Notes: generated from the sequence alone by a model not told the origin. A stretch of DNA of 64,000 bases from an uncultured Actinomycetes bacterium (GCA_946803585.1 CAMPEQ010000010.1:143052-207051); one strand, 5' to 3'; shown: positions 3,693-55,091, counted from the stretch's first letter. Translations and numbers: made by a program.

Positions 3693-5510
3693 CTAGGCCT
3701 GCAGGCGCCCACGCAACGCGTTGAGCTGTTCAGTCATCTCGGCAGGTAGCCGATCACCGAACTTCTCGAAGTACTCCTGCGTTAGGTCAGCTTCGGCCAA
3801 CCAGGTGGCTGGGTCTACCTCGAATAGCTCGACGAGTTGTTCATCGGTCAGGTCAAGGCCGTCAACGTCGAGGTCACCGGCAACCGGACGACGTCCGATG
3901 GCGGTGTCCTCCGCCTCGAGGTTGCCTTCGATCCGCTCAATAATCCAAGCGATAACCCTGGAGTTATCGCCGAACCCTGGCCAGATGTACTTACCGTCAG
4001 CGTCCTTGCGGAACCAGTTCACTTGGTAGATCTTGGGGAGCTTGTCGGCGTCAGTACTCTGGCCGACCTTCAACCAGTGACCCCAGTAGGAAGCCATGTT
4101 GTAGCCGCAGAAGGGCAGCATCGCGAACGGATCGCGACGAAGCGCTCCGACAGTTCCCTCGGCAGCAGCAGTCTGTTCCGAAGCGATCGTCGCCCCGATA
4201 AACACGCCGTGTTCCCAACTCAGTGACTCGTTGACCAGCGGAACGTTCGTCGCCCGTCGCCCACCGAAGAGGATGGCCGAGATCGGCACACCTTTTGGGT
4301 TCTCCCACTCTTCGGCAATCGAGGGACACTGACCGGCTGGAGTCGTGAAGCGAGAGTTCGGGTGTGAGCTCGGCTCATCGGACTCCGGGGTCCAGTCGCG
4401 GCCCTTCCAGTCAATTAGGTGGTCGGGGGCTTCCTTGGTCATGCCCTCCCACCACACATCGCCATCATCTGTCATCGCGACGTTGGTGAAGATCGAGTTA
4501 CCCGGATCGAGAGTCTTGATCGCATTTGCGTTCGTGTTCATCCCCGTACCTGGCGCGACACCGAAGAAGCCCGCCTCAGGGTTGATTGCGTAGAGACGAC
4601 CGTCGTCGCCAAAGCGCATCCACGCGATGTCATCACCAACGGTCTCGACCTTCCAACCCGGAAGGGTTGGCTCCAGCATCGCGAGGTTCGTCTTACCGCA
4701 AGCGGATGGGAACGCAGCCGTGATGTACCGAACTGCGCCTTCCGGCGAGGTTAGCTTCAGAATGAGCATGTGCTCAGCGAGCCAGCCTTCATCGCGAGCC
4801 ATCGCCGATGCAATCCGCAGTGCGAAGCACTTCTTACCCAACAGCGCGTTGCCGCCATAACCCGATCCGTAGGACCAGATCTCGCGTGACTCAGGGAAGT
4901 GGACGATGTACTTGGTATCGCTACACGGCCACGCGACGTCAGCTTCACCCTCAGCCAGCGGAGCGCCAACTGAGTGAAGCGCTGGCACGAAGTCGCCGTC
5001 CTCACCAATGAGGTCGAGTGCTGCCTGACCCATTCGCGTCATGATCCGCATATTGACCACAACGTAGGGGGAATCAGTCAGTTCCACTCCGAGCTGCGAG
5101 ATTCGTGAACCCAGCGGTCCCATGGAGAACGGCACGACGTACATCGTGCGGCCCTTCATCGAGCCGGCAAAGAGCTCTTTGAGTTCTTCGCGCATCTCGA
5201 ACGGATCGCGCCAGTTGTTCGTCGGGCCGGCATCGGCCTCGTTCAGGGAGCAGATGTAGGTGCGGTCTTCAACGCGAGCGACGTCTGAAGGATTCGACCG
5301 GGCCAGAAATGAGTTTGGGCGCTTGTCGGCATTGAGCCGGGTGAAGGTCCCACCATCGACGAGCACCTGAGTGAGCCGGTCCCACTCCCCCTGCGAACCG
5401 TCACACCATTCAACTCGGTCTGGCTGAGTTAGCTGCGCGACCTCATTTACCCACTCGATGAGCTTCTTATTCTTAGTTGGCATGGCATCCAGGCCAGGGA
5501 TTGTCGTCAT
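3693..5510 (-). CDS. pckG: phosphoenolpyruvate carboxykinase (GTP)
   Basis: About 605 aa from [16 protein letters not shown]. Family-typical segments [35 protein letters not shown] and YFGGRR-like [11 protein letters not shown]. The track ORF (to 5651) over-extends the N-terminus. Confidence 0.95.
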
Positions 5511-8299: not shown

Positions 8300-10009
8300 G
8301 TGTCTGCACCCACCCTGAGTCCGAGCGTCACGCAGCCCCCGAGTCCCCCCGACCCACAGGCGCTCCTCGCGCATCGACCGGGGTGGTCCCTGGCGGGAGT
8401 TCTCCTAGGAAGTCTCGGCTACGTCGCATCAATGACCCCCACCCTTCTACCCCGAACCCTCGCGACCCAATTGATCGCATCGGTCTTGGTAGTTATGACC
8501 TTGTATGCGCTCGGCGCTATCGGACAAGGCCTCGCAGCCGTCATTCACCAGCGAATTCTCAGGCGTCCGGAGTTCAGACACCGGCCACGAGCACGCCTCG
8601 TCGCGAGCCTGGTGGCGATCATTCTTGCGGCGACGGCAACGTTCCAGGGCGTGGCATGGCAACGAGAACAATTCATGGAGACGGGAGTACCAGGCGACCC
8701 CGGCTCCCCAGCATTGGTCATCTTCGCCACGATCGCCGGGTGCATCTGCGTGTTATACATTTCTCGCGGCCTGCGTGCGCTCGGACGAGCAGTCGCACGG
8801 CGCATCGCGGTGCACTTCGCCCTCCCTACAGCGATTCCCACGGTGCTGGGCGGACTAGCGATCGTGGCAGCAGCTGCAGTTCTGCTAGCTCTCGGATTCT
8901 CTGCCAGCACCGTGATGTTCAACCGAATCAACGACTCCTCCGTTGGCCAGACGCAACCAACCTCACCGCTACGAAGCGGTAGTCCAGCCTCGCTAATAGG
9001 TTGGCAGTCGCTCGGTCACCAAGGTCGAGCCTTTGTCGAACAAGGCCCAACGTCGCAGGCCATCACCGCTGTGACCGACGAATCCGCGACTGACCCCATT
9101 CGTATCTACGCAGGATTGCAGTCCGCCGACAGCCTTCAAGCACAGGCGGCCATTGCGGTGGACGATCTTCGGCGGGCCGGCGGACTCGACCGCGGGTCGG
9201 TGGTTGTCTACACGCCATCGACCAATGGACTAGTGGATCCCACCGCGGCGGCGGCAGCGGAGTACGTGACAGGTGGCGATATCGCGTCTATCTCAATGCA
9301 ATACACGGTGCTTCCCTCCTCGATGTCGTTCCTGCTGAGTCAGTCGAGTTCACTAGATGCGGGAATACTCCTCTATGAAGCAGTCCGGACCGCGATCGAC
9401 CAGCTTCCTGAGCCTGAACGGCCCAAGCTCTATGTCTACGGAGAGAGCCTCGGTGCGTTCGGATCACAGGCACCGTTTGCCGGCGGGGGTATTGAGGGAT
9501 TCACCGAGCGGGCCGATGGCGCACTCTGGGCGGGGCCACCAGCCAATAGCACCTACTGGCAAGAGATCAGCGAGATGGCCACTAGCGGACCGGCCTGGCA
9601 ACCGATTGTGGACAACGGTCAGGTCTTTCGTTTTGCTGCCAATAGCCAGGGACTGAGTCAGCCTCCCAACCCGTGGGGAGCGAAGCGAGCCGTCTACCTT
9701 CAAAACGCAACTGACCCGGTCGTGTGGTGGAGCACCGACCTAGTCGCTGCCCGACCGGGCTGGCTCAGCGAGCCCAGAGGCCCAGATGTTCCAGCCGCTA
9801 TGCGCTGGTTTCCCCTACTCACGTTCGAACTGGTATTTGTCGATATGCCAGCTGCCGGGGCAATGCCGCCAGGGATCGGCCACAACTACCTCCCGAGCAT
9901 TGGGCCAGCCTGGATAGCGGTGATGCAGCCTAAGGAATGGTCGGCGGCCACAACATCTCGGATGCAAATGGCGCTCACCGCGAGCCTGGCCGCCGACAAG
10001 TCGTCCTAG
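8300..10009 (+). CDS. membrane-anchored alpha/beta-hydrolase family protein
   Basis: Several N-terminal TM segments followed by a hydrolase domain with nucleophile elbow GESLGAFGS. The architecture resembles the actinobacterial membrane alpha/beta-hydrolase (Abhydrolase_9-like) family. Confidence 0.7.
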   Translation: MSAPTLSPSVTQPPSPPDPQALLAHRPGWSLAGVLLGSLGYVASMTPTLLPRTLATQLIASVLVVMTLYALGAIGQGLAAVIHQRILRRPEFRHRPRARLVASLVAIILAATATFQGVAWQREQFMETGVPGDPGSPALVIFATIAGCICVLYISRGLRALGRAVARRIAVHFALPTAIPTVLGGLAIVAAAAVLLALGFSASTVMFNRINDSSVGQTQPTSPLRSGSPASLIGWQSLGHQGRAFVEQGPTSQAITAVTDESATDPIRIYAGLQSADSLQAQAAIAVDDLRRAGGLDRGSVVVYTPSTNGLVDPTAAAAAEYVTGGDIASISMQYTVLPSSMSFLLSQSSSLDAGILLYEAVRTAIDQLPEPERPKLYVYGESLGAFGSQAPFAGGGIEGFTERADGALWAGPPANSTYWQEISEMATSGPAWQPIVDNGQVFRFAANSQGLSQPPNPWGAKRAVYLQNATDPVVWWSTDLVAARPGWLSEPRGPDVPAAMRWFPLLTFELVFVDMPAAGAMPPGIGHNYLPSIGPAWIAVMQPKEWSAATTSRMQMALTASLAADKSS

Positions 10010-42734: not shown

Positions 42735-42807
42735 GCGTCCATAGCTCAACGGATAGAGCATCTGACTTCGGATCAGAAGGTTTGGGGTTCGAATCCCTAT
42801 GGGCGCG
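42735..42807 (+). tRNA. tRNA-Arg, anticodon UCG by hand fold
   Basis: Cloverleaf: acceptor GCGTCCA/TGGGCGC, D arm GCTC-AACGGATA-GAGC, anticodon arm TCTGA-CTTCGGA-TCAGA, variable loop AGGTT, T arm TGGGG-TTCGAAT-CCCTA, discriminator G. CCA is not encoded. Confidence 0.88.
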
Positions 42808-42919
42808 CTCCGGCACCTAGTGCCCCGGTGGATGGGCCACGCTGGTGAAATCTGGTCGCGACGCGACAACAATTCACCGCTCTGAGCCGGTGGGTCCGCG
42901 CCGAACCGACAGTCGGGAC

Positions 42920-43468
42920 TTAGTGCTCGCGGAGGGCCTTGATTAGTTCCGTCTTCTCCATTTTTGAGCGTCCTTTGATACCTAGCGCTCTGCCACGCTT
43001 GCGGAGTCCCTTTTTGGTCCATTTCTCGTAGTTGGGAGATTTTCCGCGTAGCGATCGTGGACCGAGCAACCATTGGACTCCAGCTCGACAACTCACCCGG
43101 AGCTCGGCTGCGGGCGAAAGACGCACGATCGGCCATCCTCGCGCAAGCAGTCTCTTCGCGACGTACCTCACCGCCGGACCCCTAATGCCCCGGAGCCGAT
43201 AGGTCGCGATGTCGTGGCCATCAGACTTCGGCACAATCCGAATACCTGTCAGCGCGCCACGGTAGATCACCGAAACCTTCGCGCGGCTGACCACGATGTC
43301 AGGCCCGATAAAGCAGGGAGATCGCAAGCGAATGTGGTCGTTATCGAGGGTGACTTCAATTGCTCCCATCCCGAATGTCTGCATCCCTGCGATACCACCG
43401 TCGGTGTGGAATGTTTCAGCATCATCACTGAACACATACGGATCAAGCCCGCGTTCCCAGGACGACAC
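42920..43468 (-). CDS. hypothetical protein with Rho-N/DUF7218-like C-terminal tail
   Basis: GTG-start 182-aa ORF. The last ~42 aa (GKSPNYEKWTKKGLRKRGRALGIKGRSKMEKTELIKALREH) look like the C-terminus of small Rho_N-type proteins. The N-terminal 140 aa are unassigned. Confidence 0.4.
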   Translation of the reverse strand: MSSWERGLDPYVFSDDAETFHTDGGIAGMQTFGMGAIEVTLDNDHIRLRSPCFIGPDIVVSRAKVSVIYRGALTGIRIVPKSDGHDIATYRLRGIRGPAVRYVAKRLLARGWPIVRLSPAAELRVSCRAGVQWLLGPRSLRGKSPNYEKWTKKGLRKRGRALGIKGRSKMEKTELIKALREH

Positions 43469-43559: not shown

Positions 43560-44282
43560 TCAGTTCCACTTTTCGTCGGCCAGCGGTGCGCCATTGAGCT
43601 GATCACGCCTCGCACGCCAGTCGGGCATGAAGCTGTCCATCAAGGCAGTGAACCGTTCCCCGTGGCTACGTTCCAGCAGGTGCGTCATCTCGTGGACCAC
43701 GATGTACTCCAGGCAGTCTGGGTGCTTCTTCGCAAGTTCGAGGTTGAACCAGATGTGACCGGTTTCGCGGTTACACGATCCCCACTTGGTTTTCATTTTC
43801 CGGATGCTCCAGCGCGGCACCGTCCGTCCGATCATCGGCTCCCACGATGACACGGATCCGGGAATCCGTTCTCTTAGTTGCTGGCGCTGCCACTGTTCCA
43901 AGGCAGCCGCACGAACTCCTCGTTCGGCCCCTTCCGGGACGTAGAGCAGCAAACGATCCGAGTCGACTTCGACGTGGACTCGACCGGGCCTTTCCACAAC
44001 CTTGAGACGCATTCGGACGCCCCATACATAGTGGGACTCCCCCGTGACCATTTCTCGTTCGGATTGGCGCTCCGCGGATTGAAGTTGATGCTGCTGCTTC
44101 TTTATCCAGCTCAAGCGCTGCACGACGGCCAGGCGTACCGCGTCGTCATCGAGTTTGAGCGGGGCCGCGATCCGCACCCTTCCCAACGGCGGATAAACGC
44201 CGATGTGAAGGTTTTTGATGTCCTTGTAGACGACATCGACGTCGATCCCGCCGACGGTCAGGTACGAGCTAGTTGTATTCAC
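43560..44282 (-). CDS. M48-like metal-dependent hydrolase (DUF45/YgjP family)
   Basis: HEMTHLLERSHGERF (HExxH) near the C-terminus, with a family-typical N-terminus. The GTG start lies 14 nt inside the end of hsdR. Confidence 0.85.
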   Translation of the reverse strand: MNTTSSYLTVGGIDVDVVYKDIKNLHIGVYPPLGRVRIAAPLKLDDDAVRLAVVQRLSWIKKQQHQLQSAERQSEREMVTGESHYVWGVRMRLKVVERPGRVHVEVDSDRLLLYVPEGAERGVRAAALEQWQRQQLRERIPGSVSSWEPMIGRTVPRWSIRKMKTKWGSCNRETGHIWFNLELAKKHPDCLEYIVVHEMTHLLERSHGERFTALMDSFMPDWRARRDQLNGAPLADEKWN

Positions 44283-47200
44283 GTCGCGTCTTCACAAGCT
44301 CAAATAGTTCATCCAGTCGATCGTCATCCTCCGGTAGCGCGGCCTTGATGGCCAGTTTCACCTTCTTCTCCTTGATGGGGTTTCCCACCCAGGAGTCAGG
44401 CTTGGTATGTCGGACAACTGCATCAACTTCGATCGCTAGTTCGGTCGACGGCCAGAAATAGTCGACCAGAGCTTTGCGAGCGCCGTTGTTTACCCACTCG
44501 GGATACTCGGTATCCGAATCGCCCTTGCTGAGTTTCGCTGCTTGTTCCATGAGCTTGGCAAGGAACGCCTCGTAGTCCAGCGCACCCTTTCGACGATCTT
44601 CAAGGATTGCATCGAGCAGTTCCGACATCTTGTCGTAGTACTTCGGGTTCATCGCACGTTCATCGACGATCACTTTGCGCATGTTGTTGGCGATTGTCTC
44701 GGCAACCGCTTTGGGATCCTTCTTGACTCCGGGCGGCAGCTTGTCGATGGCTCGTGGACCAAGCTTCCCGATCAGGTCAATCAATCCAGCTTCCTTGAAC
44801 TCAGCGACAACCTTGGACGGTTCGGCGCTGATGTAGGTGTCAAGTAACCGTCGCATCCCCGCCTCGTACTGCTTGAAGTCGACGTCTTCACCTGCACCAA
44901 GTCTGACTTCGTCACGCACATGCGCGAAGTGGGTGACCTCGGCCTTGATCGCAGCCGCCTGCGCGTCGGTGTACCCGGCGTCGGCCATCTCGTTAGCCAC
45001 GTTGGCGTAACAGCGCGTTAGTGCGGCCACGGATTTGTAGAGCTCAACTCGCTTGGGTTCGTTCGCTTTGAGTTGAGCCGCGTTCCCGGGGTCCACACAG
45101 CAGAAGTACTGCTGGTACTGCAACGTGTTCTTCGGTGGCTCGACCAATTCGCACAGTGCCCGGATCGCCTCAAGCGCCTCGTCGAGATCCTGGCGAGCTG
45201 TCTCGATCCGATCCGCGAGTAAGCCCTCGATATCGGCTCGTTCATAGCCGTCCAGCGCCCCACTCGTGTAGTCGGTAATCGCGCCCTTGAGCGAGTTGAA
45301 GAGATCCTGGTAGTCGACGATGTAGCCGTAGTCTTTGTCGTCGCCGTCCAGTCGGTTAACCCGGCAAATCGCCTGAAAGAGCCCGTGATCTTGCATCTTC
45401 TTGTCGATGTACAAGTAGGTCGCTGACGGCGCATCGAAGCCCGTCAGCAGCTTGTCCACGACAATCAGCAGACGCATCTGGCCGGGCTCGTTGATGAAAC
45501 GTTCTTTGACCTCGCGCTCGAACTGTTCGACTTTGCCGACTGCAGAGTCTGCTGGCTCATCGAAGTGCTCGGCCAGCATCCGCCGGTAGATCTCATACTG
45601 CCGAAGGACCTCAGTGGCACCTTCGCCCGAATCCTCTTTCGAGACGTCTCCTGGCGCAGGCTGGTAGCTCGTGACGATGGCGCACTTGCCCTGGAACCCT
45701 GCCTGGCAGAACAACTCGTAGAACTTGCACGCCTGATAGATGCTGCCACTAACGAGCATCGCGTTGCCACGGCCGTCGATCAGGCGGGGTTTGGTCTCCA
45801 TATCTAGCAGGATGTCGTCGACAATCTGACGTGCTCGTGGCTCTGCACTGACAACCTTCTGGATCGTGCCCCACCGCTTCTTTAACTCCGCACGCGACAG
45901 GTCCGTCATTCCCTTGGTCTTAACGTCGAACCATTGGTCAACCTTGGCCGAAGACGTGAGGTCTTGATTAATGCTGCGCGCTTCGTACCGCAGATCGAGC
46001 ACGACCCCGTCGCTAACGGCCTCGTCGTACTTGTAGGTGTGGATGAAGCTACCGAACGTCTCGATACTTGTGGCCTTGTCGGCTTTGAGGAGCGGTGTTC
46101 CGGTGAAGCCAATGAACATCGCGCCAGGCAGTAGCTGCGCCATGGCGTCGTGCATCTTTCCTGATTGCGTTCGGTGCGCTTCGTCAACGAATACGTAGAA
46201 GTTGCCCTTGGCTTTGAAGTCGCTGGGGATGCGCGCGTTGAGGTCGCGAATGAAGTCAGTCGCATCTGCGTCGGAGTCGGAATCCCCCGCGGTGCCGAAC
46301 TTGTGGATCAGTGAGCAGATCAGCCGCTCCTGCGAGGTGTTCAGCGTTGCGACGAGGTCCGCGCCACTGGTCGTCCGATGGATCGCCTCGTTGACCCCGC
46401 CGAACACTCCTTCAATCTGCTGATCGAGTTCGGTGCGGTCGGTGATGAGCAAGACGCGAGCCTGCGGATCATGCGCAAGAATCCACTTGGCCAGCCACAC
46501 CATCGTCAGCGATTTGCCGGACCCTTGGGTGTGCCAGATGATTCCGCCCTCACACTTGGCCACGCGGGCTTGCGCCGCTTTGACACCGAAGTACTGGTTG
46601 TGACGGCAGGTCTTCCTCGTGCCTGAGTCGAACACGATGAAGTCGTGAACGATTTCCAGTAACCGGGTCTTGTCGCAAAGTTGGGCGATGGATCGGTCGA
46701 GAGGTTCGGCGATGTCGGAGTCTTCCCGCCAGTTCAACCAGTACCGCTCGGGAGTCTCAATCGTGCCGTACCGCAACCCCTCGACATCGTTGCCGGCCAT
46801 GACGAGTTGGACCGTGGTGAAGAACTGCCGAATGAAGTCCGGGCGCTGGTTGCCGATGGATTGCCGGATGCCCTCAGAGACGGCGACTTTGGACCGTTTG
46901 AGTTCGATCGTGACAAACGCGATGCCGTTGACGTAGAGCACGAGATCAGGGCGCTTCGTGTGCTGACCATCGACGGTGACTTCCTCGGACACGGCAAAGT
47001 CGTTGACCTCGGGATTCTCCCAGTCGATCAACCAGACCGTCTCCGTTTGCTCGCCGAGCCCTGGGCGCACCTTGACCCCGTACCGCAGCAGCCCGTAGAC
47101 GTCCTTGTTCGCCTCGTACAAGTCACGTCCACCGCCGAGCGATGCGTCGCTCTTGAGCTTGTCGACTGCCTTATTGATCAGTACCTCGTCGTATCCGCGT

Positions 47201-47352
47201 GCTCGAAGATTCGCGCTGAGCAACTCGACTTCGATGTTGGAGTTTCCTTGGCGGTGCTCCCAGTTGCCAAGGTTGGTGTATCCGAGGCTCTTGTTGAGAA
47301 TCGCGACGACGCGATTCTGCGTCTCGCGCTCCACCTGCCCGACGTCACTCAT
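44269..47352 (-). CDS. hsdR: Type I restriction endonuclease subunit R
   Basis: 1027 aa. N-terminal nuclease region (PDLVLYVNGIAFVTIELK), SF2 helicase motifs (HTQGSGKS, FVDEAHR, TGTP) and a DUF3387-like C-terminus. The track ORF over-extends to 47502. Confidence 0.95.
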   Translation of the reverse strand: MSDVGQVERETQNRVVAILNKSLGYTNLGNWEHRQGNSNIEVELLSANLRARGYDEVLINKAVDKLKSDASLGGGRDLYEANKDVYGLLRYGVKVRPGLGEQTETVWLIDWENPEVNDFAVSEEVTVDGQHTKRPDLVLYVNGIAFVTIELKRSKVAVSEGIRQSIGNQRPDFIRQFFTTVQLVMAGNDVEGLRYGTIETPERYWLNWREDSDIAEPLDRSIAQLCDKTRLLEIVHDFIVFDSGTRKTCRHNQYFGVKAAQARVAKCEGGIIWHTQGSGKSLTMVWLAKWILAHDPQARVLLITDRTELDQQIEGVFGGVNEAIHRTTSGADLVATLNTSQERLICSLIHKFGTAGDSDSDADATDFIRDLNARIPSDFKAKGNFYVFVDEAHRTQSGKMHDAMAQLLPGAMFIGFTGTPLLKADKATSIETFGSFIHTYKYDEAVSDGVVLDLRYEARSINQDLTSSAKVDQWFDVKTKGMTDLSRAELKKRWGTIQKVVSAEPRARQIVDDILLDMETKPRLIDGRGNAMLVSGSIYQACKFYELFCQAGFQGKCAIVTSYQPAPGDVSKEDSGEGATEVLRQYEIYRRMLAEHFDEPADSAVGKVEQFEREVKERFINEPGQMRLLIVVDKLLTGFDAPSATYLYIDKKMQDHGLFQAICRVNRLDGDDKDYGYIVDYQDLFNSLKGAITDYTSGALDGYERADIEGLLADRIETARQDLDEALEAIRALCELVEPPKNTLQYQQYFCCVDPGNAAQLKANEPKRVELYKSVAALTRCYANVANEMADAGYTDAQAAAIKAEVTHFAHVRDEVRLGAGEDVDFKQYEAGMRRLLDTYISAEPSKVVAEFKEAGLIDLIGKLGPRAIDKLPPGVKKDPKAVAETIANNMRKVIVDERAMNPKYYDKMSELLDAILEDRRKGALDYEAFLAKLMEQAAKLSKGDSDTEYPEWVNNGARKALVDYFWPSTELAIEVDAVVRHTKPDSWVGNPIKEKKVKLAIKAALPEDDDRLDELFELVKTRREYN

Positions 47353-48373
47353 TGCCGTCCTCATTCCCCTCGACGCCAAGCTCACGGGCTCGTTGCACGA
47401 ATCTGTCGAAGTCCGAGTCCGTTGCTGCGCTCGTAACCGAGAACTGCTCGTACTCCGCCTTCGCATGGGCGTCAGCAAGCTGCGCCGAAACTCTTCCGGC
47501 ACTCGTCAGGATGTCACGATCATTGAGGGCAAGAAACCCGTCGAGTTTTGACAACCAATCGCCCATACGCATAGGAATCCGACGTCGCGCTTGACCTTCG
47601 GCAAAGACGAGATACTGCTCGACCAGGTTATTCAGCGCAGCGAGTTCTTCCGCTGCGTAGTAGTTCTTTGCGACCGCGACGTCCGCACTACGGGGGTGAA
47701 CTCCCCGCCAACTGGTCAGCCCCATATTCGGCTTTGTGGCGTCTGCGCGATCGTGAACGATCTCTGCCGCTGTCTGACCGGTGATTGCCCAGTGCAGTTT
47801 GTTCTGGACAGTCGCGAAGAACGTTTGAGTCACCTGCGCGGATGCGTCGTAGTCCACCGACGTCGCATAGACATCGGTGATTTTTTGGTAGAAGCGCCGC
47901 TCGCTAGTACGAATCGCTTGAATACGTTCGAGTAGTTCCTCGAAGTAGTCGAACGGCACGTCGGGATTCGCCAACCGCTCATCGTCGAGGACGAATCCTC
48001 TCACGATCAGCTCTCGCAGATTCGTGGTTGCCCAGATCCGGAATTGCGTCGCGGTCTTGCTGCGCACCCGGTAGCCCACCGAAATAATCATGTCGAGGTT
48101 GTAATGCGTGATGCTGCGATTGACCTGCCGCGAGCCCTCTTGGCGAACTGTTCGGAAATCCCGAACAGTTGCCCCGGCCGCCAGTTCCCCGTCGGCAAGA
48201 ACGTTGCTGATGTGCTCGCTGATGTTTGCTTTGGACGAATCAAAGAGCGCTACAAGTTGCTCCTGACTCAGCCAGACAGTCTCACCATCAAAACGGACCT
48301 CAAGGTGCACCTTGCCAGCCTCGTCAGCGTAGACGAGGAACTGGCTCGGATTGGCCGGTTCGAGGTCAGTCAT
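47345..48373 (-). CDS. RhuM family protein (virulence-protein RhuM-like), embedded in the R-M operon
   Basis: 342 aa. VRDFRTVRQEGSRQVNRSITHYNLDMIISVGYRVRSKTATQFRIWAT and RRFYQKITDVYATSVDY are characteristic RhuM segments. There are 8-nt overlaps at both ends. Confidence 0.85.
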   Translation of the reverse strand: MTDLEPANPSQFLVYADEAGKVHLEVRFDGETVWLSQEQLVALFDSSKANISEHISNVLADGELAAGATVRDFRTVRQEGSRQVNRSITHYNLDMIISVGYRVRSKTATQFRIWATTNLRELIVRGFVLDDERLANPDVPFDYFEELLERIQAIRTSERRFYQKITDVYATSVDYDASAQVTQTFFATVQNKLHWAITGQTAAEIVHDRADATKPNMGLTSWRGVHPRSADVAVAKNYYAAEELAALNNLVEQYLVFAEGQARRRIPMRMGDWLSKLDGFLALNDRDILTSAGRVSAQLADAHAKAEYEQFSVTSAATDSDFDRFVQRARELGVEGNEDGNE

Positions 48374-49319
48374 CGATCTGCTCCATTGGAACATCCTCGA
48401 CGCCCCGGTTCTGCCAATGTCCATACGTCTCGCCGGTTCCGACGATCTGCCACTGAACGCGCCCATTACATGAGCGTCCGGACACCACCGCCCCTGCCGC
48501 GGACGGAGACGCGAACGGGACATCTCGCGTGAAATGTGCCGCGCCGGTCTCGTCGACCGCGATCGATCCGTCCGCCAGTAGTTGCTCATGGAGGACTTTG
48601 TAGCCGTGACTCGAACTGACCCATTCGGGTCGGGCGCCCGACCCAGTCATAACGGTGAAGTCTCCATCGACTTCTTGGGCCGTCGCTGTGATGTCGAATC
48701 TTCCGAGCCGAAGCTCAAACAGTGGTGAAACGCCGGTCCCAGAAAGCGCATTCTGATTCGAGGTTGCGTCAGCGGAACCCACCCTGGAAGTCAACGAACT
48801 TGACCGGAACATGTTGAGTCCAAGCACCGGGAGCACGATGAGGGACTGCGAGATGAAGTACTCCATGTCCGAGACGTCGGCCTCGGGCAGCCGGGGCAGT
48901 GGCGGTGCAGTCGCGTTGTCGAGCTTCGCTCGGCCGGCTGCTTTGGCCAGGGAGATCAGCCGGGACTCCACATAGCGAACATGCGACTTGGTGAGATTCG
49001 CATCCTTCGAGGAGAGGACAAGTGCTCGGTTCCAGAAGTCTTTGCCACCTGCTTCGGGCTGTCGAGCGTGCATCTTGAGACGTCTCTGGACATCGTCGCC
49101 CTCACCCACGTAGACGATCGTTCCCCCGAGTTGCTCGGGGTCATCACCGATCAGGATGTAGACCCCTGTGCCGGTCGTCTCCTCACGCTTGAGTAACTCT
49201 GCAAGCAGTGAACGCGGCGCTGCGACGACAGTGCCCGTCCAGTTCATGATTTCCGCGGTCAAAAGACCACCAGAGGTTCCATCCACGAGGAACAGCCGCA
49301 CTGACCTTCCATCACTCAT
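48366..49319 (-). CDS. GIY-YIG nuclease-like N-terminal domain / DUF4357-like C-terminal domain protein, embedded in the R-M operon
   Basis: GVYILIG...IVYVGEGDDVQRRLKMH (GIY...YIG...R pattern), then ...E at VESRLI. The C-terminus FASPSAAGAVVSGRSCNGRVQW matches my recollection of DUF4357. Confidence 0.75.
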   Translation of the reverse strand: MSDGRSVRLFLVDGTSGGLLTAEIMNWTGTVVAAPRSLLAELLKREETTGTGVYILIGDDPEQLGGTIVYVGEGDDVQRRLKMHARQPEAGGKDFWNRALVLSSKDANLTKSHVRYVESRLISLAKAAGRAKLDNATAPPLPRLPEADVSDMEYFISQSLIVLPVLGLNMFRSSSLTSRVGSADATSNQNALSGTGVSPLFELRLGRFDITATAQEVDGDFTVMTGSGARPEWVSSSHGYKVLHEQLLADGSIAVDETGAAHFTRDVPFASPSAAGAVVSGRSCNGRVQWQIVGTGETYGHWQNRGVEDVPMEQIDD

Positions 49320-50491
49320 GCGACAGCCTCCGTGATCGGGAGACGGGTGCGCCCGGTGAGCAGTTCTTGCATCATCCCTTGCTTGATCGCCCGGGCCTTA
49401 GTGAGACGTTGGCGGAGTGTGTCGATCACGACATCGGCGTCGTCGAGAGTAGCTCTAATTGCTATCTGTTCATCCTTGTCTGGCAGTCTCAGCTCCACGC
49501 TCTCTACTCTTGTCGAACTGAGGCTCGGAACACCCGACGCCTCGCTCATCGAACGCCAGTCGACAGTCTGAAAAACGTAGTACAAGTATCGGGGGTCAGC
49601 GTCATCCCGAATCTCGGTGTAGAAGAGGGTGTCGACCGTCCAGAACGGCGAGTCTCGAAATTGAGGTCGGTCGATCGTTCCCTTCCGTCCGATCAACACA
49701 GATGCCTTCGAATAGATAGGCACCCGCGCCCAGCCGATCTGTCCACCGGTAGCCAGAATCGGAAAGCAGCTGTTTCCGACCTCAACTTGCTTCTGATCGC
49801 GACCATGGCGAACTGTCAGCACGTCGCGTAACCGTGCCTCGCGCCATGGCTCGGTGAAGCCGGGGAGGCGGGTTTGGCCAGTGAGGAGTTGTTGCATCAT
49901 TCCCTGCTTGGTTGATTCCTTTTTCTTGATCAATCGTTCAAGCGTGACGATCAGTTCGTCGGCGTCCGACAGCACCTCCGCGATGCGCTTCTGTTCGGGG
50001 AGGGGTGGGACGGGGAGCCGCAGTTGACGGAGGTCCCGCGAGTAAATTGCGGCGACGCTCGTTGTTCCTGTGGCTAGCCCTCGGATCTTGTTGATCGCAC
50101 CCTCGGCATTCAATGCGTACCCGAAGTACACGCTACTTCCACAATGCTCTCGCTGGAACTCGAATCGCAGGATGTTGGAGTTGTAGTACGCCCTAGGCAG
50201 TTCCGCCTTCCAGATTGCAACCTTCCCAACGAGGTCAAGAGTGTTCCGGGTGTTCAACAGGACGTCGCCGAAGAAGAGTCTGTGCTCCTCAAGCGGCTCC
50301 TCGTCCTTCGGAATGTACTCCAGCGTTGACACGTCGATCCGGGAACGACCAATGTTCCCCATCTTGATCAAGGGCGCGCTAGTGACGTTCGAGTCGTTTC
50401 GGTAGTTACCCCCGAGCCTGAGAACGGCCAGGTCATCGACGGGACGCTCGTCCCAATCTGAAGGGAAGCGTCCGACTACCGTGCCAGTCAT
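49316..50491 (-). CDS. hsdS: Type I restriction-modification specificity subunit S
   Basis: Two target-recognition halves, each followed by a conserved helix: LPEQKRIAEVLSDADELIVTLERLIKKKESTKQGMMQQLLTG and DKDEQIAIRATLDDADVVIDTLRQRLTKARAIKQGMMQELLTG. Confidence 0.92.
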   Translation of the reverse strand: MTGTVVGRFPSDWDERPVDDLAVLRLGGNYRNDSNVTSAPLIKMGNIGRSRIDVSTLEYIPKDEEPLEEHRLFFGDVLLNTRNTLDLVGKVAIWKAELPRAYYNSNILRFEFQREHCGSSVYFGYALNAEGAINKIRGLATGTTSVAAIYSRDLRQLRLPVPPLPEQKRIAEVLSDADELIVTLERLIKKKESTKQGMMQQLLTGQTRLPGFTEPWREARLRDVLTVRHGRDQKQVEVGNSCFPILATGGQIGWARVPIYSKASVLIGRKGTIDRPQFRDSPFWTVDTLFYTEIRDDADPRYLYYVFQTVDWRSMSEASGVPSLSSTRVESVELRLPDKDEQIAIRATLDDADVVIDTLRQRLTKARAIKQGMMQELLTGRTRLPITEAVA

Positions 50492-52920
50492 CGGTGTCCC
50501 ATTTCCGCAAGGTGCTTCGCGACGCGGGCTTCTAGGTCGGCGAGTTTGGCTTCGAGGTCGCCGACGGTTTGGTCGTAGCGTTCGCCGAGTTCGCGGATGC
50601 GATCGACAAGAGACAGAGTGAGTGCTGTCAGTTCACCGGAAACGCGATCGGCGATCGTTGCCAGCCACTTGCCATCAAGACCGAGTTCTTGAACAGCCGC
50701 CGAGTCCAGCTCCCCGTACCTCGCGAGGGTCTGGGTATCGAGCGTTTGCTGCGCGAGCTTGACGTCCTTCTTCGCATCCGCTTCGGCTGAATACAGCGCG
50801 ATCAGATTCTCCAAGGCAGCGACTTCCTCAGCATCCGTTCCCTCATTCTTCGCGGCTTTGAGGCGCGCCTTCGCGAGAGCATTGCTGATCTTTCCGTCGT
50901 CCATCGCCTCAGCGAGCAGGCCGTCTTCTACTGCGTGTTCCTCGACGTACTCTTCAACAGCGCGGCCTGCCTCGTCGGCCTGCTGTTGTAGCGCATCAAC
51001 GTCCCGCTGTTCCGCAGACAAGAAATGCCCAGCGATCAGCGCTGGCGGGATCAGATCCATCTTGTACTTGGCCGCGCTTCGTCCTGAACCGATGACGAGG
51101 TCAGGTGTCTCGGTGATCTTGCGGTCCTTGTCGTCGATCGTTTTGCGTGGACGGGACGCCTCGACCCATCCGTCGCTCATCAGCAAGAACACGTCGTCGT
51201 GCATCACGGAGTGCCAGTACGCCATCAGTTGCTCGTAGACATCGTATTCATCCAGGAGTGGTGTCTCGGTGAATCTCTCAAGTAAGTCATTCGCGAGGCT
51301 AGCAATCAGCTCATTCGGCCGGGTATCGGCGTCAATCGCAAGCAGCGACTTGCGGTGCGCCTCGAACCAATCTGTGACCTTGGCCGTCACCTCGTCGGTG
51401 AACGTGACGAACTCGGCTGAATCGAGGATCGCTTGCTGCACGTCGCTGACCGGAATCGTTAGATCGCTGTAGCCCGGACGGTTCTGGGTGAACAGTGTGG
51501 ACCGCAAACTTGGGAACGCATCCCAGAAAGCTGACAGTGCATCGATGTCAGCGTCGGGGATGCCCCCGTGTAAGTGTGCGTGTAGGTCCTGGATGTCTTC
51601 TGGATCTGATCCGTCGATGTAGCGCGGGATGTTCAGGTTGTAGTCGTTGGCTTCGTTCGCAATCTCGGCCAGCGGAACCATGCGGGAATAGCCGGGCACA
51701 TCGGTCTGCTTGGTGAACACGTCAACGACCTTGTGGATGTCTTGGCTACGCAGACGGTTCTTAGGCCCGTCTTTGATGAACCCCTTGGACGCATCAACCA
51801 TGAAGACGCCCGTACGTGCCTGGGCGTCGTGCTTGTCGATGATGACGATGCACGCGGGGATACCAGTTCCGTAGAAGAGGTTCGCGGGCAGCCCAATGAT
51901 GCCCTTGATGTAGCCGCGTTTGAGGAGGTTGCGTCGAATACCTGCCTCGGCGTTCCCTCGAAACAGCACGCCATGCGGCAAGATCACCGCTGCCTTACCG
52001 TTGCTCTTGAGCGAGTTGAGCACGTGGAGCAGGAACGCGTAGTCACCGTTCTTCTCCGGTGGCCGACCTAGCGCGAATCGGTCGTAGTCATTCTCAAGTC
52101 CGTTGCTCCACGACTTCACCGAGAACGGCGGGTTGGCGACAGCGAAGTCGAAGGTGCGCAGCGCTGAGCCATTGACGAACTTCGGGTTCGTGATCGTGTC
52201 ACCCTTGAGGATGTCGGCATCCTCGTGGCCGTGCAGAATCATGTTCATCTTTGACAGTGCCCAGGTGGCATTGTCCTTCTCTTGCCCGTAGATCGTGATA
52301 CCTCGGGGTGCTTGATCGGCCGCCTTCAGAAGCAACGAACCTGAACCACAGGTCGGGTCGTACACAGTCTGGTCCTGCTTTGTGTCAGGCCCGATGCCAA
52401 CGACTTGGGCAAGTATTCGAGAGACCTCAGCGGGGGTGTAGAACTGACCCTTCGACTTGCCGGATTCGGTAGCGAAGTGGCGCATCAAATACTCGTACGC
52501 ATCCCCAAGGAGGTCGTCGCCCTCGGCCCGACTGCCGCGAAAATCCAGGTCAGCAAAGATGCTGACCAGCTTGGTGAGCCGGTCTTGCATCTCTTTACCC
52601 TTGCCCAGCTTCTCTTCATCATTGAAGTCAGCGAGGTCAATGACCTTCTCAAGACTGTTGGCCGCTGCTAGCTTGCCGATGACTTTATTGATCTTGTCGC
52701 CGATTTCCTTGTCACCACGCAACGAGACCATATCCTCGAACGAGCCACCCGTGGGCACATCGATGAGGCTGTTGGGGTCGGTCGCGGCCTTGTCGGTCAC
52801 GTACTTCACGAACAGCATCGTGAGGATGTAGTCCTTGTACTGCGACGCATCCATCCCACCACGAAGCTCGTCGCAACTCTTCCATAGCGAGCTATATAGA
52901 TCAGACTTCTTGATTGCCAA
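50488..52920 (-). CDS. hsdM: Type I restriction-modification methyltransferase subunit M, with a long C-terminal extension
   Basis: TTG start 8 nt after GGAGG. HsdM N-domain (KSDLYSSLWKSCDELRG), AdoMet motif DPTCGSGS, catalytic NPPF. 810 aa versus about 500-540 for classic HsdM. Confidence 0.95.
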   Translation of the reverse strand: MAIKKSDLYSSLWKSCDELRGGMDASQYKDYILTMLFVKYVTDKAATDPNSLIDVPTGGSFEDMVSLRGDKEIGDKINKVIGKLAAANSLEKVIDLADFNDEEKLGKGKEMQDRLTKLVSIFADLDFRGSRAEGDDLLGDAYEYLMRHFATESGKSKGQFYTPAEVSRILAQVVGIGPDTKQDQTVYDPTCGSGSLLLKAADQAPRGITIYGQEKDNATWALSKMNMILHGHEDADILKGDTITNPKFVNGSALRTFDFAVANPPFSVKSWSNGLENDYDRFALGRPPEKNGDYAFLLHVLNSLKSNGKAAVILPHGVLFRGNAEAGIRRNLLKRGYIKGIIGLPANLFYGTGIPACIVIIDKHDAQARTGVFMVDASKGFIKDGPKNRLRSQDIHKVVDVFTKQTDVPGYSRMVPLAEIANEANDYNLNIPRYIDGSDPEDIQDLHAHLHGGIPDADIDALSAFWDAFPSLRSTLFTQNRPGYSDLTIPVSDVQQAILDSAEFVTFTDEVTAKVTDWFEAHRKSLLAIDADTRPNELIASLANDLLERFTETPLLDEYDVYEQLMAYWHSVMHDDVFLLMSDGWVEASRPRKTIDDKDRKITETPDLVIGSGRSAAKYKMDLIPPALIAGHFLSAEQRDVDALQQQADEAGRAVEEYVEEHAVEDGLLAEAMDDGKISNALAKARLKAAKNEGTDAEEVAALENLIALYSAEADAKKDVKLAQQTLDTQTLARYGELDSAAVQELGLDGKWLATIADRVSGELTALTLSLVDRIRELGERYDQTVGDLEAKLADLEARVAKHLAEMGHR

Positions 52921-53144
52921 CTGACTAACCTCCGGAAGATACTGCGCTAAGACTAGGGGGCCAGAGCGGCCTGACCCCAAATCCCGCTGTTCTTGATCCA
53001 GGCTAGCGAGGCTATGTGACAGTTCAGTTGATCAGGTGCGTTAGATCAACATCCCCCACAGTGGCAGCGGCCACCGGAACCATAAGGCGACAGCAAGTTC
53101 GCGCCCGGCTTGGTTGAGGGCGTCCCGTCACTTAGGTTGGAACT

Positions 53145-53846
53145 ATGGCTCGGCTATTGGCACTCACGATCGTCGCGTCATCCTGCGCCCTGATAGCGGT
53201 TGGTTGCTCGACGGCCTCTGCGCCGCAGGCAGCTTCGACCCCCGATGAGTCACCAGCTACTAGTTGGCTACTCACGGTATCTGGGACGGGAAGGGCTGAA
53301 TCAATCAACGGCCAGCGCTACCTGACACTGAGCAAGACCAGCGAGGCTCTCGGGTTCACGTCTCGCCCGGCCCGATCGCAGATCGAGATGCCCGCGTCCT
53401 CCATCGTGGCGCTATGGCAGGGATTCGGTTTTCAATCCGACCCGCCGAATGCGGCCATCAGCAACGGTGAATCCTCGCAAGCCGTCGTGCTCCGCAATCC
53501 TGCGCTCACGGCAAATGGTTCAATCCGTTGGCTCGCACCAGCACTGCAAGGCCCGCTCGGGGCAAACACCACCGTCACCATCGACGGAGGAGTCGTCAAC
53601 TCTCAAGTGACTGACACAATCACCGAGACAAATGTGAAGGCCCTCGGAACGCCCGCAGCATCGGCGATCGGCAATGACTACGACCAGGCAACGACCACCC
53701 TGCGCAATGCCACAACTGAACCAACTGGCGCCGAACTCCAGAAGTTGACGCTGACCAGCGAGGAGACCTCTGCGATTGCGCGAATCCTGCAGACGACTGG
53801 AGGGCAGGGCGTTCCTGGTGCCAACACTCCCGCGGACCTGCCTTAG
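53145..53846 (+). CDS. hypothetical lipoprotein
   Basis: Lipobox LIAVGCS. 233 aa, Thr/Ala/Ser-rich. No motif recognised. Confidence 0.5.
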   Translation: MARLLALTIVASSCALIAVGCSTASAPQAASTPDESPATSWLLTVSGTGRAESINGQRYLTLSKTSEALGFTSRPARSQIEMPASSIVALWQGFGFQSDPPNAAISNGESSQAVVLRNPALTANGSIRWLAPALQGPLGANTTVTIDGGVVNSQVTDTITETNVKALGTPAASAIGNDYDQATTTLRNATTEPTGAELQKLTLTSEETSAIARILQTTGGQGVPGANTPADLP

Positions 53847-53974: not shown

Positions 53975-54353
53975 TGGTGGAGGTGCCGAGAATCGAACTC
54001 GGGTCCAACGAAACAAATAAGAGGATTCTCCGGGTGCAGTCGCGTTACTCGCTATTCGGCCTCTCCATTCTTGTGCGACCCGACGGAGATAGCGGCCTAG
54101 TCAGCTGTTTGATTTCCCGTTCACTTCCGCTAACCGAAATGATTGGTGAGTCTTCTAGTCGACGCCGGGATCTGGAGGGAAGACACCCCCAGGCCGACGG
54201 ATCTATATGGCTCTACTGCAATTAAGCAGCGAGAGCGAGATCAGTGCGCTTGGTATCTGCACTTGTTTTTTCAACGGAGCGTTAATGAGATAACCGTTGA
54301 TCCTCAACCCGCTTCACTCTTCTCTGCAAACGTTGTCGAAACCGTTCACCCCC
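53975..54353 (-). ncRNA. ssrA: transfer-messenger RNA (tmRNA)
   Basis: 5' GGGGGUGAACGGUUUCGACA... pairs with 3' ...CACCUCCACCA, including the G3:U pair. T arm CCGAG-UUCGAUU-CUCGG. The internal tag frame GCA GAT ACC AAG CGC ACT GAT CTC GCT CTC GCT GCT TAA encodes ADTKRTDLALAA (54222..54260). Confidence 0.9.
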
Positions 54354-54581: not shown

Positions 54582-55091
54582 ATGGATGCGATGAGCGCAG
54601 CCCTCACAACTATCTACTTCGGAATGCCGCTATGGGCGTGGATCGCAGCCGGGTTAGCAATCGTGATTCTCATTGCGATGATGGTCGCGGTCTCGATCAG
54701 CTCGAAGAAGCGCGCTAAGTGGGACCGTGCTTTCTACCTACGCAGGGCCGACGCTCGCTGGTTTGCTGACTCGCTGACGCTGGCAGTGGCAGATCGCACG
54801 AAGGGAACCCCCGAACTCGTCCGTACGTGGACTGATGGCGTTCCGCGAATGTCTACCCTGAGCCAACAGCTTTACGAACTCTCGACGATGGCCCCTAGTG
54901 ACAAGCGTGCACGTCAACCACGCCAACTTGCCACAGCGGTAGACAACCTGCGAAGTGCACTTGATGCCGATGTGCGACTGCGGACCCAAGGCACTGCACC
55001 TGGCCAAGAATCGGTGATCGCTGAGTCAGCGATGGTTGTTGCCCAGCGCCGACGTGACCTTGACCAGACTCTGTTCGCGCTCAGCAGTTAG
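54582..55091 (+). CDS. hypothetical single-pass membrane protein
   Basis: 169 aa with one TM (LWAWIAAGLAIVILIAMMVAV). No motif recognised. Confidence 0.5.
   Translation: MDAMSAALTTIYFGMPLWAWIAAGLAIVILIAMMVAVSISSKKRAKWDRAFYLRRADARWFADSLTLAVADRTKGTPELVRTWTDGVPRMSTLSQQLYELSTMAPSDKRARQPRQLATAVDNLRSALDADVRLRTQGTAPGQESVIAESAMVVAQRRRDLDQTLFALSS

Follow-up and report, generated by a model that had tools for sequence, protein, structure and literature searches.

A four-gene-family type I restriction–modification operon carrying a PDC-S14/RhuM cassette between hsdS and hsdR

Restriction–modification (R-M) operons are known to host other defence genes. The PDC candidates were gathered by screening for genes that lie within BREX, DISARM or type I R-M systems; in that work 96.7% of the embedded genes were co-oriented with the flanking system, and backup defence by embedded systems was discussed (Payne et al., bioRxiv 10.1101/2024.01.29.577857). 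RhuM in R-M operons was proposed in 2013 as an arm of multilevel defence, with a RhuM toxin working jointly with PrrC-like and R-M proteins (Anantharaman et al., PMC3710099), and a published table holds a type I locus with a RhuM coding sequence and a GIY-YIG coding sequence between its core genes (CP081899.1). The embedding of defence genes in R-M operons, the RhuM arm of multilevel R-M defence and backup systems within type I R-M are all already published. Here we describe a locus of this kind at positions 43560-52920 of a 64,000-nucleotide (nt) stretch of DNA, one strand, from an uncultured Actinomycetes bacterium (GCA_946803585.1 CAMPEQ010000010.1:143052-207051; the whole stretch is hereafter the window), in which a type I R-M operon carries a PDC-S14 gene and a RhuM (PDC-S05) gene between hsdS and hsdR and ends in a metallopeptidase gene, ygjP.

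Our preferred reading, to which we give a probability of roughly 70%, is that the locus is an intact type I operon of a four-gene family, hsdM-hsdS-hsdR-ygjP, that carries an autonomous PDC-S14/RhuM defence cassette in a variable slot, with YgjP belonging to the core. Similar to the candidates of Payne et al., full-length PDC-S14 and PDC-S05 matches here stand co-oriented between core type I genes, and the same slot in relatives holds further candidates or known systems (PDC-S01, PDC-S02, PDC-S13 and HEC-06/GmrSD). By contrast, two single-gene candidates form one overlapping cassette here, apparently corresponding to no listed multi-gene candidate, and this cassette outlives the flanking R-M genes in relatives.

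Six co-oriented open reading frames (ORFs) on the minus strand fill positions 43560-52920, in the gene order given in an earlier note on this DNA (aa, amino acids):

50488-52920, minus: hsdM, type I methyltransferase subunit; 810 aa, TTG start (Pfam, PADLOC, TIGR00497)
52929-52933, minus: GGAGG ribosome-binding site, 8 nt 5′ of the hsdM TTG (sequence reading)
49316-50491, minus: hsdS, specificity subunit; 391 aa, two target-recognition halves (Methylase_S, PADLOC Specificity_I)
48366-49319, minus: cargo gene 1, GIY-YIG-like with C-terminal DUF4357, PDC-S14; 317 aa (PADLOC, Pfam)
47345-48373, minus: cargo gene 2, RhuM family, PDC-S05; 342 aa (PADLOC, Pfam)
44269-47352, minus: hsdR, restriction/translocase subunit; 1027 aa (Pfam, PADLOC, TIGR00348)
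43560-44282, minus: ygjP/DUF45, SprT-like HExxH zinc metallopeptidase; 240 aa, GTG start (Pfam YgjP-like)

All five junctions are start/stop overlaps and read in the DNA exactly as the note had them. The hsdM stop and hsdS start share ATGA at 50488-50491, and hsdS meets the DUF4357 gene in a second ATGA at 49316-49319; the DUF4357 gene and RhuM overlap by 8 nt, ATGACTGA, at 48366-48373, RhuM and hsdR meet in ATGAGTGA at 47345-47352, and hsdR and ygjP in GTGAATACAACTAG at 44269-44282, the ygjP GTG start standing 14 nt before the hsdR TAG. The TTG start of hsdM lies at 52920, the codon (ORF residue 21) at which the PADLOC MTase_I profile also starts. The six genes are one tightly packed co-oriented operon. 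Transcription of all six probably starts at the hsdM promoter, and coupled translation is permitted by the overlaps; an operon-wide scan for promoters and terminators, which does not model actinobacterial promoters, found no internal site above shuffle expectation.

The R-M genes look complete, as judged from full-length profile matches. HsdM matches N6_Mtase (PF02384, 1.8e-101) and HsdM_N (PF12161, 9.5e-15), scores above the own cutoff of TIGR00497 and covers profile positions 1-808 of the 810 in PADLOC MTase_I. HsdS matches Methylase_S (PF01420) in two stretches, giving two target-recognition halves, and PADLOC Specificity_I (9.7e-63) over residues 4-387. HsdR has an N-terminal PD-(D/E)xK nuclease domain and a superfamily 2 (SF2) translocase, seen both in profiles (HSDR_N PF04313, SWI2_SNF2 PF18766, T1R_D3-like PF22679 and ResIII in Pfam; TIGR00348 at 7.7e-156; PADLOC REase_I over profile positions 1-1028 of 1034) and in the DEAH (FVDEAH) and PD...ELK motifs of its translation. 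From family membership, HsdM2S would methylate the host genome and HsdR would cut unmodified foreign DNA.

Several lines of evidence place ygjP in the core of this system. First, the best 80 relatives of HsdR (59-79% identity, each taken with 10 kb of flank), which are mostly from Actinomycetota with some from Proteobacteria, Cyanobacteria and Chloroflexi, have a ygjP homolog directly 3′ of hsdR in 80/80 loci. The overlap between the two genes is 14 nt, as in the window, in 67 of these loci and 11 nt in 8 of the 80. The earlier note had counted three passengers, among them the DUF45 protein; a gene that trails hsdR in every related locus leaves only two cargo genes. On this linkage YgjP is the conserved fourth gene of the R-M family, a core partner of hsdR and not cargo, and by gene content the locus is an intact type I R-M operon of a widespread, mostly actinobacterial four-gene family, hsdM-hsdS-hsdR-ygjP.

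Second, the product is a well-defined member of its own family. YgjP matches Pfam YgjP-like (PF01863, 9.2e-60) over profile positions 4-205 of 207 and SprT-like at 5.7e-6; its zinc-binding motif, HEMTH, is visible in the translation, and HExxH is present in 93/94 homologs. These two are its only matches, with no Peptidase_M48 match at E <= 0.01, so the M48 label first attached to the gene was dropped; 'M48 family metallopeptidase' is one of NCBI's names for YgjP homologs, and given the missing profile match we regard it as a mere naming habit. PADLOC holds no model for YgjP, and NCBIfam none for YgjP or either cargo protein. Sequence searches of the PDB with YgjP and with profiles of both cargo families gave no meaningful match, weak matches to uS9 and lectin being rejected as chance.

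Third, the pairing reaches well beyond the close relatives. YgjP matches occur on 537 plasmid records, of which Klebsiella accounts for 355. On the Klebsiella plasmid that we inspected, the gene directly after a type I hsdR, with a 4-nt overlap, encodes a YgjP homolog that NCBI lists as 'SprT family zinc-dependent metalloprotease'. HsdR and YgjP of that plasmid are each 31% identical to their counterparts in the window, and this equal divergence indicates an old, co-inherited pair. A YgjP-like metallopeptidase on the archaeal Halomicrobium plasmid pLC1Hm-01 (L251, 6956-10240; L and H numbers are our handles for compared loci and records) adjoins a stand-alone N-6 DNA methylase and has no hsdR neighbour, because of which the link of such peptidases to DNA-modification genes may extend past type I HsdR.

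The nearest precedent is ArdC, encoded by plasmid R388, which has a SprT/Spartan-like metalloprotease domain and interferes with type I HsdRMS; its protease activity is dispensable for anti-restriction (PMC7213743). ArdC and YgjP share a SprT-like HExxH metallopeptidase fold connected with type I restriction; however, ArdC serves an incoming plasmid against restriction and also bears a single-stranded-DNA-binding domain, whereas YgjP is a product of the R-M operon, its gene overlapping hsdR, and we liken the two by fold only. ClpXP controls EcoKI and Spartan clears DNA–protein adducts, and both suggest analogies for YgjP acting on HsdR. To our knowledge, the control of HsdR activity is poorly understood outside the ClpXP-regulated Escherichia coli families. 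YgjP may control or clear HsdR, by way of restriction alleviation or the removal of stalled complexes.

Between hsdS and hsdR, the operon family has a slot whose content varies. Among the 72 family loci that have both hsdM and hsdR, hsdS abuts hsdR in 49 and the slot holds an insert in 23, which bears out the earlier proposal that this position takes cargo. The commonest insert, in about 13 loci, encodes a Ymh/PF09509 protein of about 242 aa (L086, L089, L110, L114, L123, L132-L135, L138 and L139, at ~9276-10004 each; L031, at 4729-5472), a family classed in the HEPN superfamily by Anantharaman et al. (PMC3710099); it belongs to no defined PADLOC system and matches PD-Lambda-3_B and Aga_HEPN only weakly. 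PDC-S14 occupies the slot in 5 of the 72 operons and GmrSD/HEC-06 in two loci, and the other cargo comprises a Schlafen AlbA_2/HATPase_c_4 protein, PDC-S01 (AAA_14 and DUF4143), PDC-S13 (Bro-N) and PDC-S02 (NucS-like). The slot of a Nodosilinea sp. metagenome-assembled genome (L156, 5907-9446) holds a 4.1-kb insert encoding a zeta-toxin/AAA_33 kinase, a GmrSD enzyme and an HTH_66/DUF433 protein.

The junctions of the slot are as constant as its content is varied. Whatever gene stands 5′ of hsdR, it overlaps hsdR by 4 nt in 59 of 76 scored loci, the overlap being 8 nt in another 5; nearly all inserts end with one of these overlaps on the hsdR start, as does the empty slot. Because the overlaps are common to every cargo type and to the empty slot, they are not specific evidence for a functional tie between cargo and R-M genes, and we rejected them as a sign of one. 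The earlier argument from these overlaps thus survives in part: a single packed operon stands, and the functional tie that had been read from it does not.

Linkage across genomes is a separate matter, and here both cargo families are significantly co-located with type I genes, as the earlier note had expected. With type I genes sought within 10 kb, and a control set of 80 smpB loci of which none has them, PDC-S14 has type I genes in 49/80 loci, 40 of them directly adjacent (p = 6.5e-20), and RhuM in 23/80 listed loci, 15 directly adjacent (p = 3.8e-8). These counts are lower bounds, because the hidden Markov models were built from few families. The 80 RhuM loci are distant relatives (at most 63% identity), closer ones having been traced through protein matches and contig look-ups. 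When only loci flanked by 5 kb or more on each side are counted, type I genes accompany 39 of 61 PDC-S14 loci and are absent from 22, and 21 of 34 RhuM loci, among the matches listed, have none. PDC-S14 is also found inside type III R-M systems, with the domain order N6_N4_Mtase - PDC-S14 - ResIII/RE_endonuc: as Mod-PDC-S14-Res in L079 (9086-13845) and as PDC-S14-Res in L076 (9827-13793). The family is therefore R-M-associated in general and not specific to type I. RhuM takes other positions in other type I families, in the orders hsdM-RhuM-hsdS-hsdR (L242) and hsdM-hsdS-RhuM-hsdR (L243).

The two genes seldom travel together at a distance, with RhuM in 2 of 80 PDC-S14 loci and PDC-S14 in 0/80 distant RhuM loci among the matches listed. 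We compared nine loci that carry the window RhuM or a close relative (70-78% identity). PDC-S14 lies directly upstream of RhuM, with overlapping codons, in five of the nine: the window, L001, L241, L246 and L248. L001, L246 and L248 have a common PDC-S14/RhuM junction, GAGGTAT(C/T)CGATGAGTGAGATCGAACC, with an 8-nt ATGAGTGA overlap, and among PDC-S14 copies those from the window, L001 and L246 are mutual nearest relatives. The order is reversed in Mycolicibacter senuensis (L013, 8966-9941), where RhuM precedes PDC-S14 with a 60-nt spacer; apart from the window, no other compared locus has the two passengers within an intact hsdM-hsdS-hsdR-ygjP operon.

Several of these loci are relics of such operons. 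In Pseudactinotalea sp. HY160 (L241; WHMT01000001.1, 6890-9200), deletions surround an intact PDC-S14/RhuM cassette: the hsdM leader and ~25 N-terminal codons, frameshifted, are fused to the last 30 hsdS codons, the hsdS TGA still overlaps the PDC-S14 ATG, and downstream only the last 43 ygjP codons are left. That locus lies within an extracellular contractile injection system cluster (phage sheath, eCIS_core and Pvc16_N). L246 and L248 retain an hsdS C-terminal stub, L248 also has a frameshifted 81-codon hsdR stub, and in L247 RhuM is followed by an hsdR fragment. The remnants around these orphan cassettes argue that the six-gene arrangement, or a near equivalent, once existed in several lineages, and that the R-M genes were deleted afterwards while the cargo was kept. 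The ratio of non-synonymous to synonymous substitution rates (dN/dS) between L001 and L246 is 0.36 for PDC-S14 and 0.17 for RhuM, which points to purifying selection on both. By this comparison, PDC-S14 and RhuM form a conserved cassette of two genes, which in relatives has persisted after its R-M carrier was lost.

The first protein of the cassette is probably a DNA nuclease. It matches PADLOC PDC-S14 (PDLC04923) at 3.3e-118, residues 1-308 aligning to profile positions 21-315 of 320, and DUF4357 is its sole above-threshold Pfam match (5e-14). Residues 33-173 match only GIY-YIG (PF01541) in Pfam, over profile positions 3-74 of 78 and below threshold. The AlphaFold model has a predicted local distance difference test (pLDDT) score of 81 and three parts: a small, strongly conserved N-terminal beta domain, a beta-beta-alpha-beta-alpha core at 52-128 (strands 52-59 and 67-74, helix 77-85, strand 96-104, helix 111-128), and a confident C-terminal domain with DUF4357. 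Six residues, Y54, Y70, R80, H84, E118 and N135, are invariant in 45 homologs, and together they place the GIY-YIG catalytic set (Tyr, Tyr, Arg, His/Tyr, Glu, Asn) on that core. Their spacing resembles that of Y6, Y17, R27, H31, E75 and N90, which we take to be the I-TevI catalytic set; an hhalign comparison with an I-TevI sequence that Pfam recognises as GIY-YIG aligned only the YVG...R...H stretch (probability 17.5%). Conservation of the family extends across phyla, with identities of 48-62%.

Fusions of DUF4357 to GmrSD type IV enzymes also occur, and the domain is listed among the fusion domains of McrB homologs, which suggests that it is a module for reading DNA that type IV restriction enzymes use as well. 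In cargo protein 1 it matches RAMA weakly; this DUF4357-related domain owes its name to an association with restriction enzymes and adenine methylases. Because of the GmrSD and McrB fusions, by analogy, cargo protein 1 may target DNA that escapes type I restriction, such as modified phage DNA. This resembles BREX with embedded BrxU/GmrSD, in which unmodified and modified DNA are covered in a complementary way, since the embedded putative nuclease here has the same DUF4357 that is fused to GmrSD and McrB; unlike those enzymes, it has a GIY-YIG-like fold and not DUF262/HNH, and a dependence on modification would be conjecture by comparison.

The second protein belongs to the RhuM family throughout, matching Virulence_RhuM (PF13310, 5e-110) over profile positions 1-248 of 252 and PADLOC PDC-S05 (PDLC04851) over its full length at 3.5e-139. 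According to a cold-seep preprint, one PDC-S05 (RhuM) gene by itself lowers T7 and T5 plating about 1000-fold in E. coli B. RhuM is probably a DNA-binding effector able to protect alone; its model reaches moderate confidence only in an N-terminal beta-hairpin/winged-helix region, after which comes a helical body. As in the systems of Anantharaman et al., a RhuM-family gene lies inside an R-M operon; here, however, the partner is a GIY-YIG-like/DUF4357 protein, not a PrrC-like or Fic/DOC one, and the role put forward there was that of a putative protein-modifying toxin, whereas relaxed Pfam scans of the two halves of the window RhuM for a hidden Fic/DOC, Bro-N or ORF6N domain gave the RhuM match only. 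Homologs about 60% identical occur in distant phyla and archaea, those in ANME-1, Methanosarcinales and Methanomicrobiales (contigs L164, L178, L204 and L225) being 46-60% identical, and 51 phage records carry RhuM homologs, among them Wolbachia WO and Gordonia phages (H34, H35, H41 and H44) whose homologs fall in the same 46-60% range. This distribution indicates very wide horizontal spread with strong sequence conservation.

Some observations weigh against our reading. The PF01541 match of cargo protein 1 (E 0.0023) scores 18.6 bits against a 22.6-bit cutoff, and Foldseek with its whole-protein model found no match at E <= 0.001 in the PDB or BFVD, only scattered weak matches to phage homing or GIY-YIG endonucleases; we therefore call the protein GIY-YIG-like, keeping the DUF4357 half of its first label and holding the GIY-YIG half as a sub-threshold assignment. 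The RhuM model is poor (pLDDT 58), and its best Foldseek match, to the DNA-damage-binding protein DdrC, has E 1.7e-3 but a low TM-score and serves as a lead only. We found no experimental anti-phage report on PDC-S14, and the cold-seep preprint does not mention it. The role proposed for YgjP is drawn from gene linkage and a protease motif. RhuM is frameshifted near codon 224 in L013, and L248 has a frameshift in PDC-S14, so some cargo copies are decaying. Finally, the genomes with orphan cassettes might hold a second type I system elsewhere, which would limit the demonstrated independence from R-M genes to independence in cis.

With these points in the balance, the cargo is most likely an extra defence layer that acts alone and gains from co-expression and co-transfer with the R-M genes, and is probably neither a subunit nor a latent prisoner of the R-M complex. 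A more specific and tentative version, possible but clearly short of an even chance, gives each part a mechanism: YgjP would be an unrecognised fourth component acting on HsdR, a self-encoded protease for restriction alleviation or for clearing stalled complexes, and PDC-S14 and RhuM would be a two-gene defence system, nuclease and DNA-binding sensor or effector, that uses the hsdM promoter.

The best-surviving alternative, which we consider unlikely, is the one raised in the earlier note by analogy with PrrC: that HsdMSR binds the cargo and keeps it latent until a phage anti-restriction protein frees it for abortive infection. In the prr locus, prrC, the gene of an anticodon nuclease masked by the R-M enzyme, sits between hsdS and hsdR, and the cargo here occupies that same position, co-oriented and overlapped with the R-M genes; the idea of layered defence is common to both. 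PDC-S14 is moreover strongly tied to R-M, with type I genes at 39 of its 61 well-flanked loci and others in type III systems, and both the joint RhuM–PrrC–R-M toxin scheme of Anantharaman et al. (PMC3710099) and the backup defence discussed by Payne et al. (bioRxiv 10.1101/2024.01.29.577857) are in the same spirit. Against this, neither cargo protein matches PrrC, ABC-ATPase or HEPN models in Pfam or PADLOC, and the cargo has neither the ABC-ATPase nor the HEPN anticodon-nuclease domain of the EcoprrI system. The overlapping junctions are generic to any cargo. Nor is the cargo confined to type I R-M: 21/34 well-flanked RhuM loci (among the matches listed) and 22/61 PDC-S14 loci lack type I genes, and a single RhuM-family gene protects E. 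coli unaided in the preprint. The cassette persists beside deleted R-M genes in L241 and L246, intact and under purifying selection, as does RhuM alone in L247, which favours an autonomous layer over a PrrC-style guard and weakens the proposal of a nuclease held in check.

Still less probable is a selfish passenger, in which cargo gene 1 is a free-standing homing-type endonuclease that invades R-M operons, with RhuM hitch-hiking and no benefit to the host. The sporadic presence in 5 of 72 related operons would suit it, as would the fold, GIY-YIG being a classic homing fold, the phage homing endonucleases among the weak Foldseek matches, and a match of cargo protein 1 to the phage family phrog_12629. 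However, the slot also takes unrelated non-homing genes (HEPN, GmrSD and AAA), the family is kept across phyla and its catalytic set is invariant, PDC-S14 is found in just 2 phage records, and purifying selection goes on after the presumed target operon has been destroyed. Nor does the cargo have an intergenic spacer or, in the scan described above, a promoter of its own, and the PDC list was curated against mobilome-associated proteins (bioRxiv 10.1101/2024.01.29.577857). That the cargo proteins are accessory subunits, an extra nuclease or DNA-damage sensor that alters HsdR cutting or regulation, is very improbable: tight translational coupling could aid stoichiometric assembly, RAMA carries the name of restriction enzymes and adenine methylases, and RhuM weakly resembles DdrC in structure, but 49 of 72 sister operons are cargo-free yet otherwise complete-looking, and the cargo is found in unrelated type I families at other positions (L242 and L243), in type III systems and alone.

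The operon lies between two RNA genes that bound the inserted region:

53975-54353, minus: tmRNA gene ssrA, upstream bound (ARAGORN; Rfam RF00023, 142.6 bits)
42735-42808, plus: tRNA-Arg(TCG), downstream bound (ARAGORN; Rfam RF00005)

Proteins identical to those of the operon occur on a metagenome contig (ENA ERZ12590882) and in an NCBI record. In the species-level genome collection the closest SmpB, 77% identical, belongs to a Candidatus Nanopelagicales metagenome-assembled genome, with Frankiaceae next, which makes the host an uncultured actinobacterium. The smpB loci of relatives carry none of the six gene families (0/80, 1.44 Mb in total); because of this, we conclude from gene content that the operon is a lineage-specific acquisition. 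It sits between the 3′ end of ssrA, whose tag peptide is ADTKRTDLALAA, and tRNA-Arg(TCG); tRNA and tmRNA genes are classic sites of island integration. Between the two genes a search for attachment-site repeats found only short repeats at chance level, and no integrase domain was found in the ORFs flanking the operon. Between ssrA and hsdM, the plus strand holds a 233-aa ORF (53145-53846) whose score for RebB, the R-body 'killing trait' family, is borderline (PF11747; E 4.4e-5, with 23.9 bits where the cutoff is 24). The 182-aa ORF at 42920-43468 (minus) and the 169-aa ORF at 54582-55091 have no Pfam match.

Taken as a whole, the locus is a clean natural example of restriction operons carrying other immune genes: one defined slot in one R-M family is filled by at least eight cargo types, the cargo junctions are rebuilt as start/stop overlaps, and the cargo can survive the loss of its carrier operon. 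PDC-S14 lacks a published phenotype in the literature that we searched, and the locus is useful for choosing candidates to test. Two features, the obligate HsdR–YgjP pair and a cassette outliving its carrier, were not found in the searched literature, in which work on DUF45, COG1451, YgjP, M48 or SprT with type I restriction does not address the hsdR–ygjP pair. The most novel lead is this obligate pairing of HsdR with YgjP.

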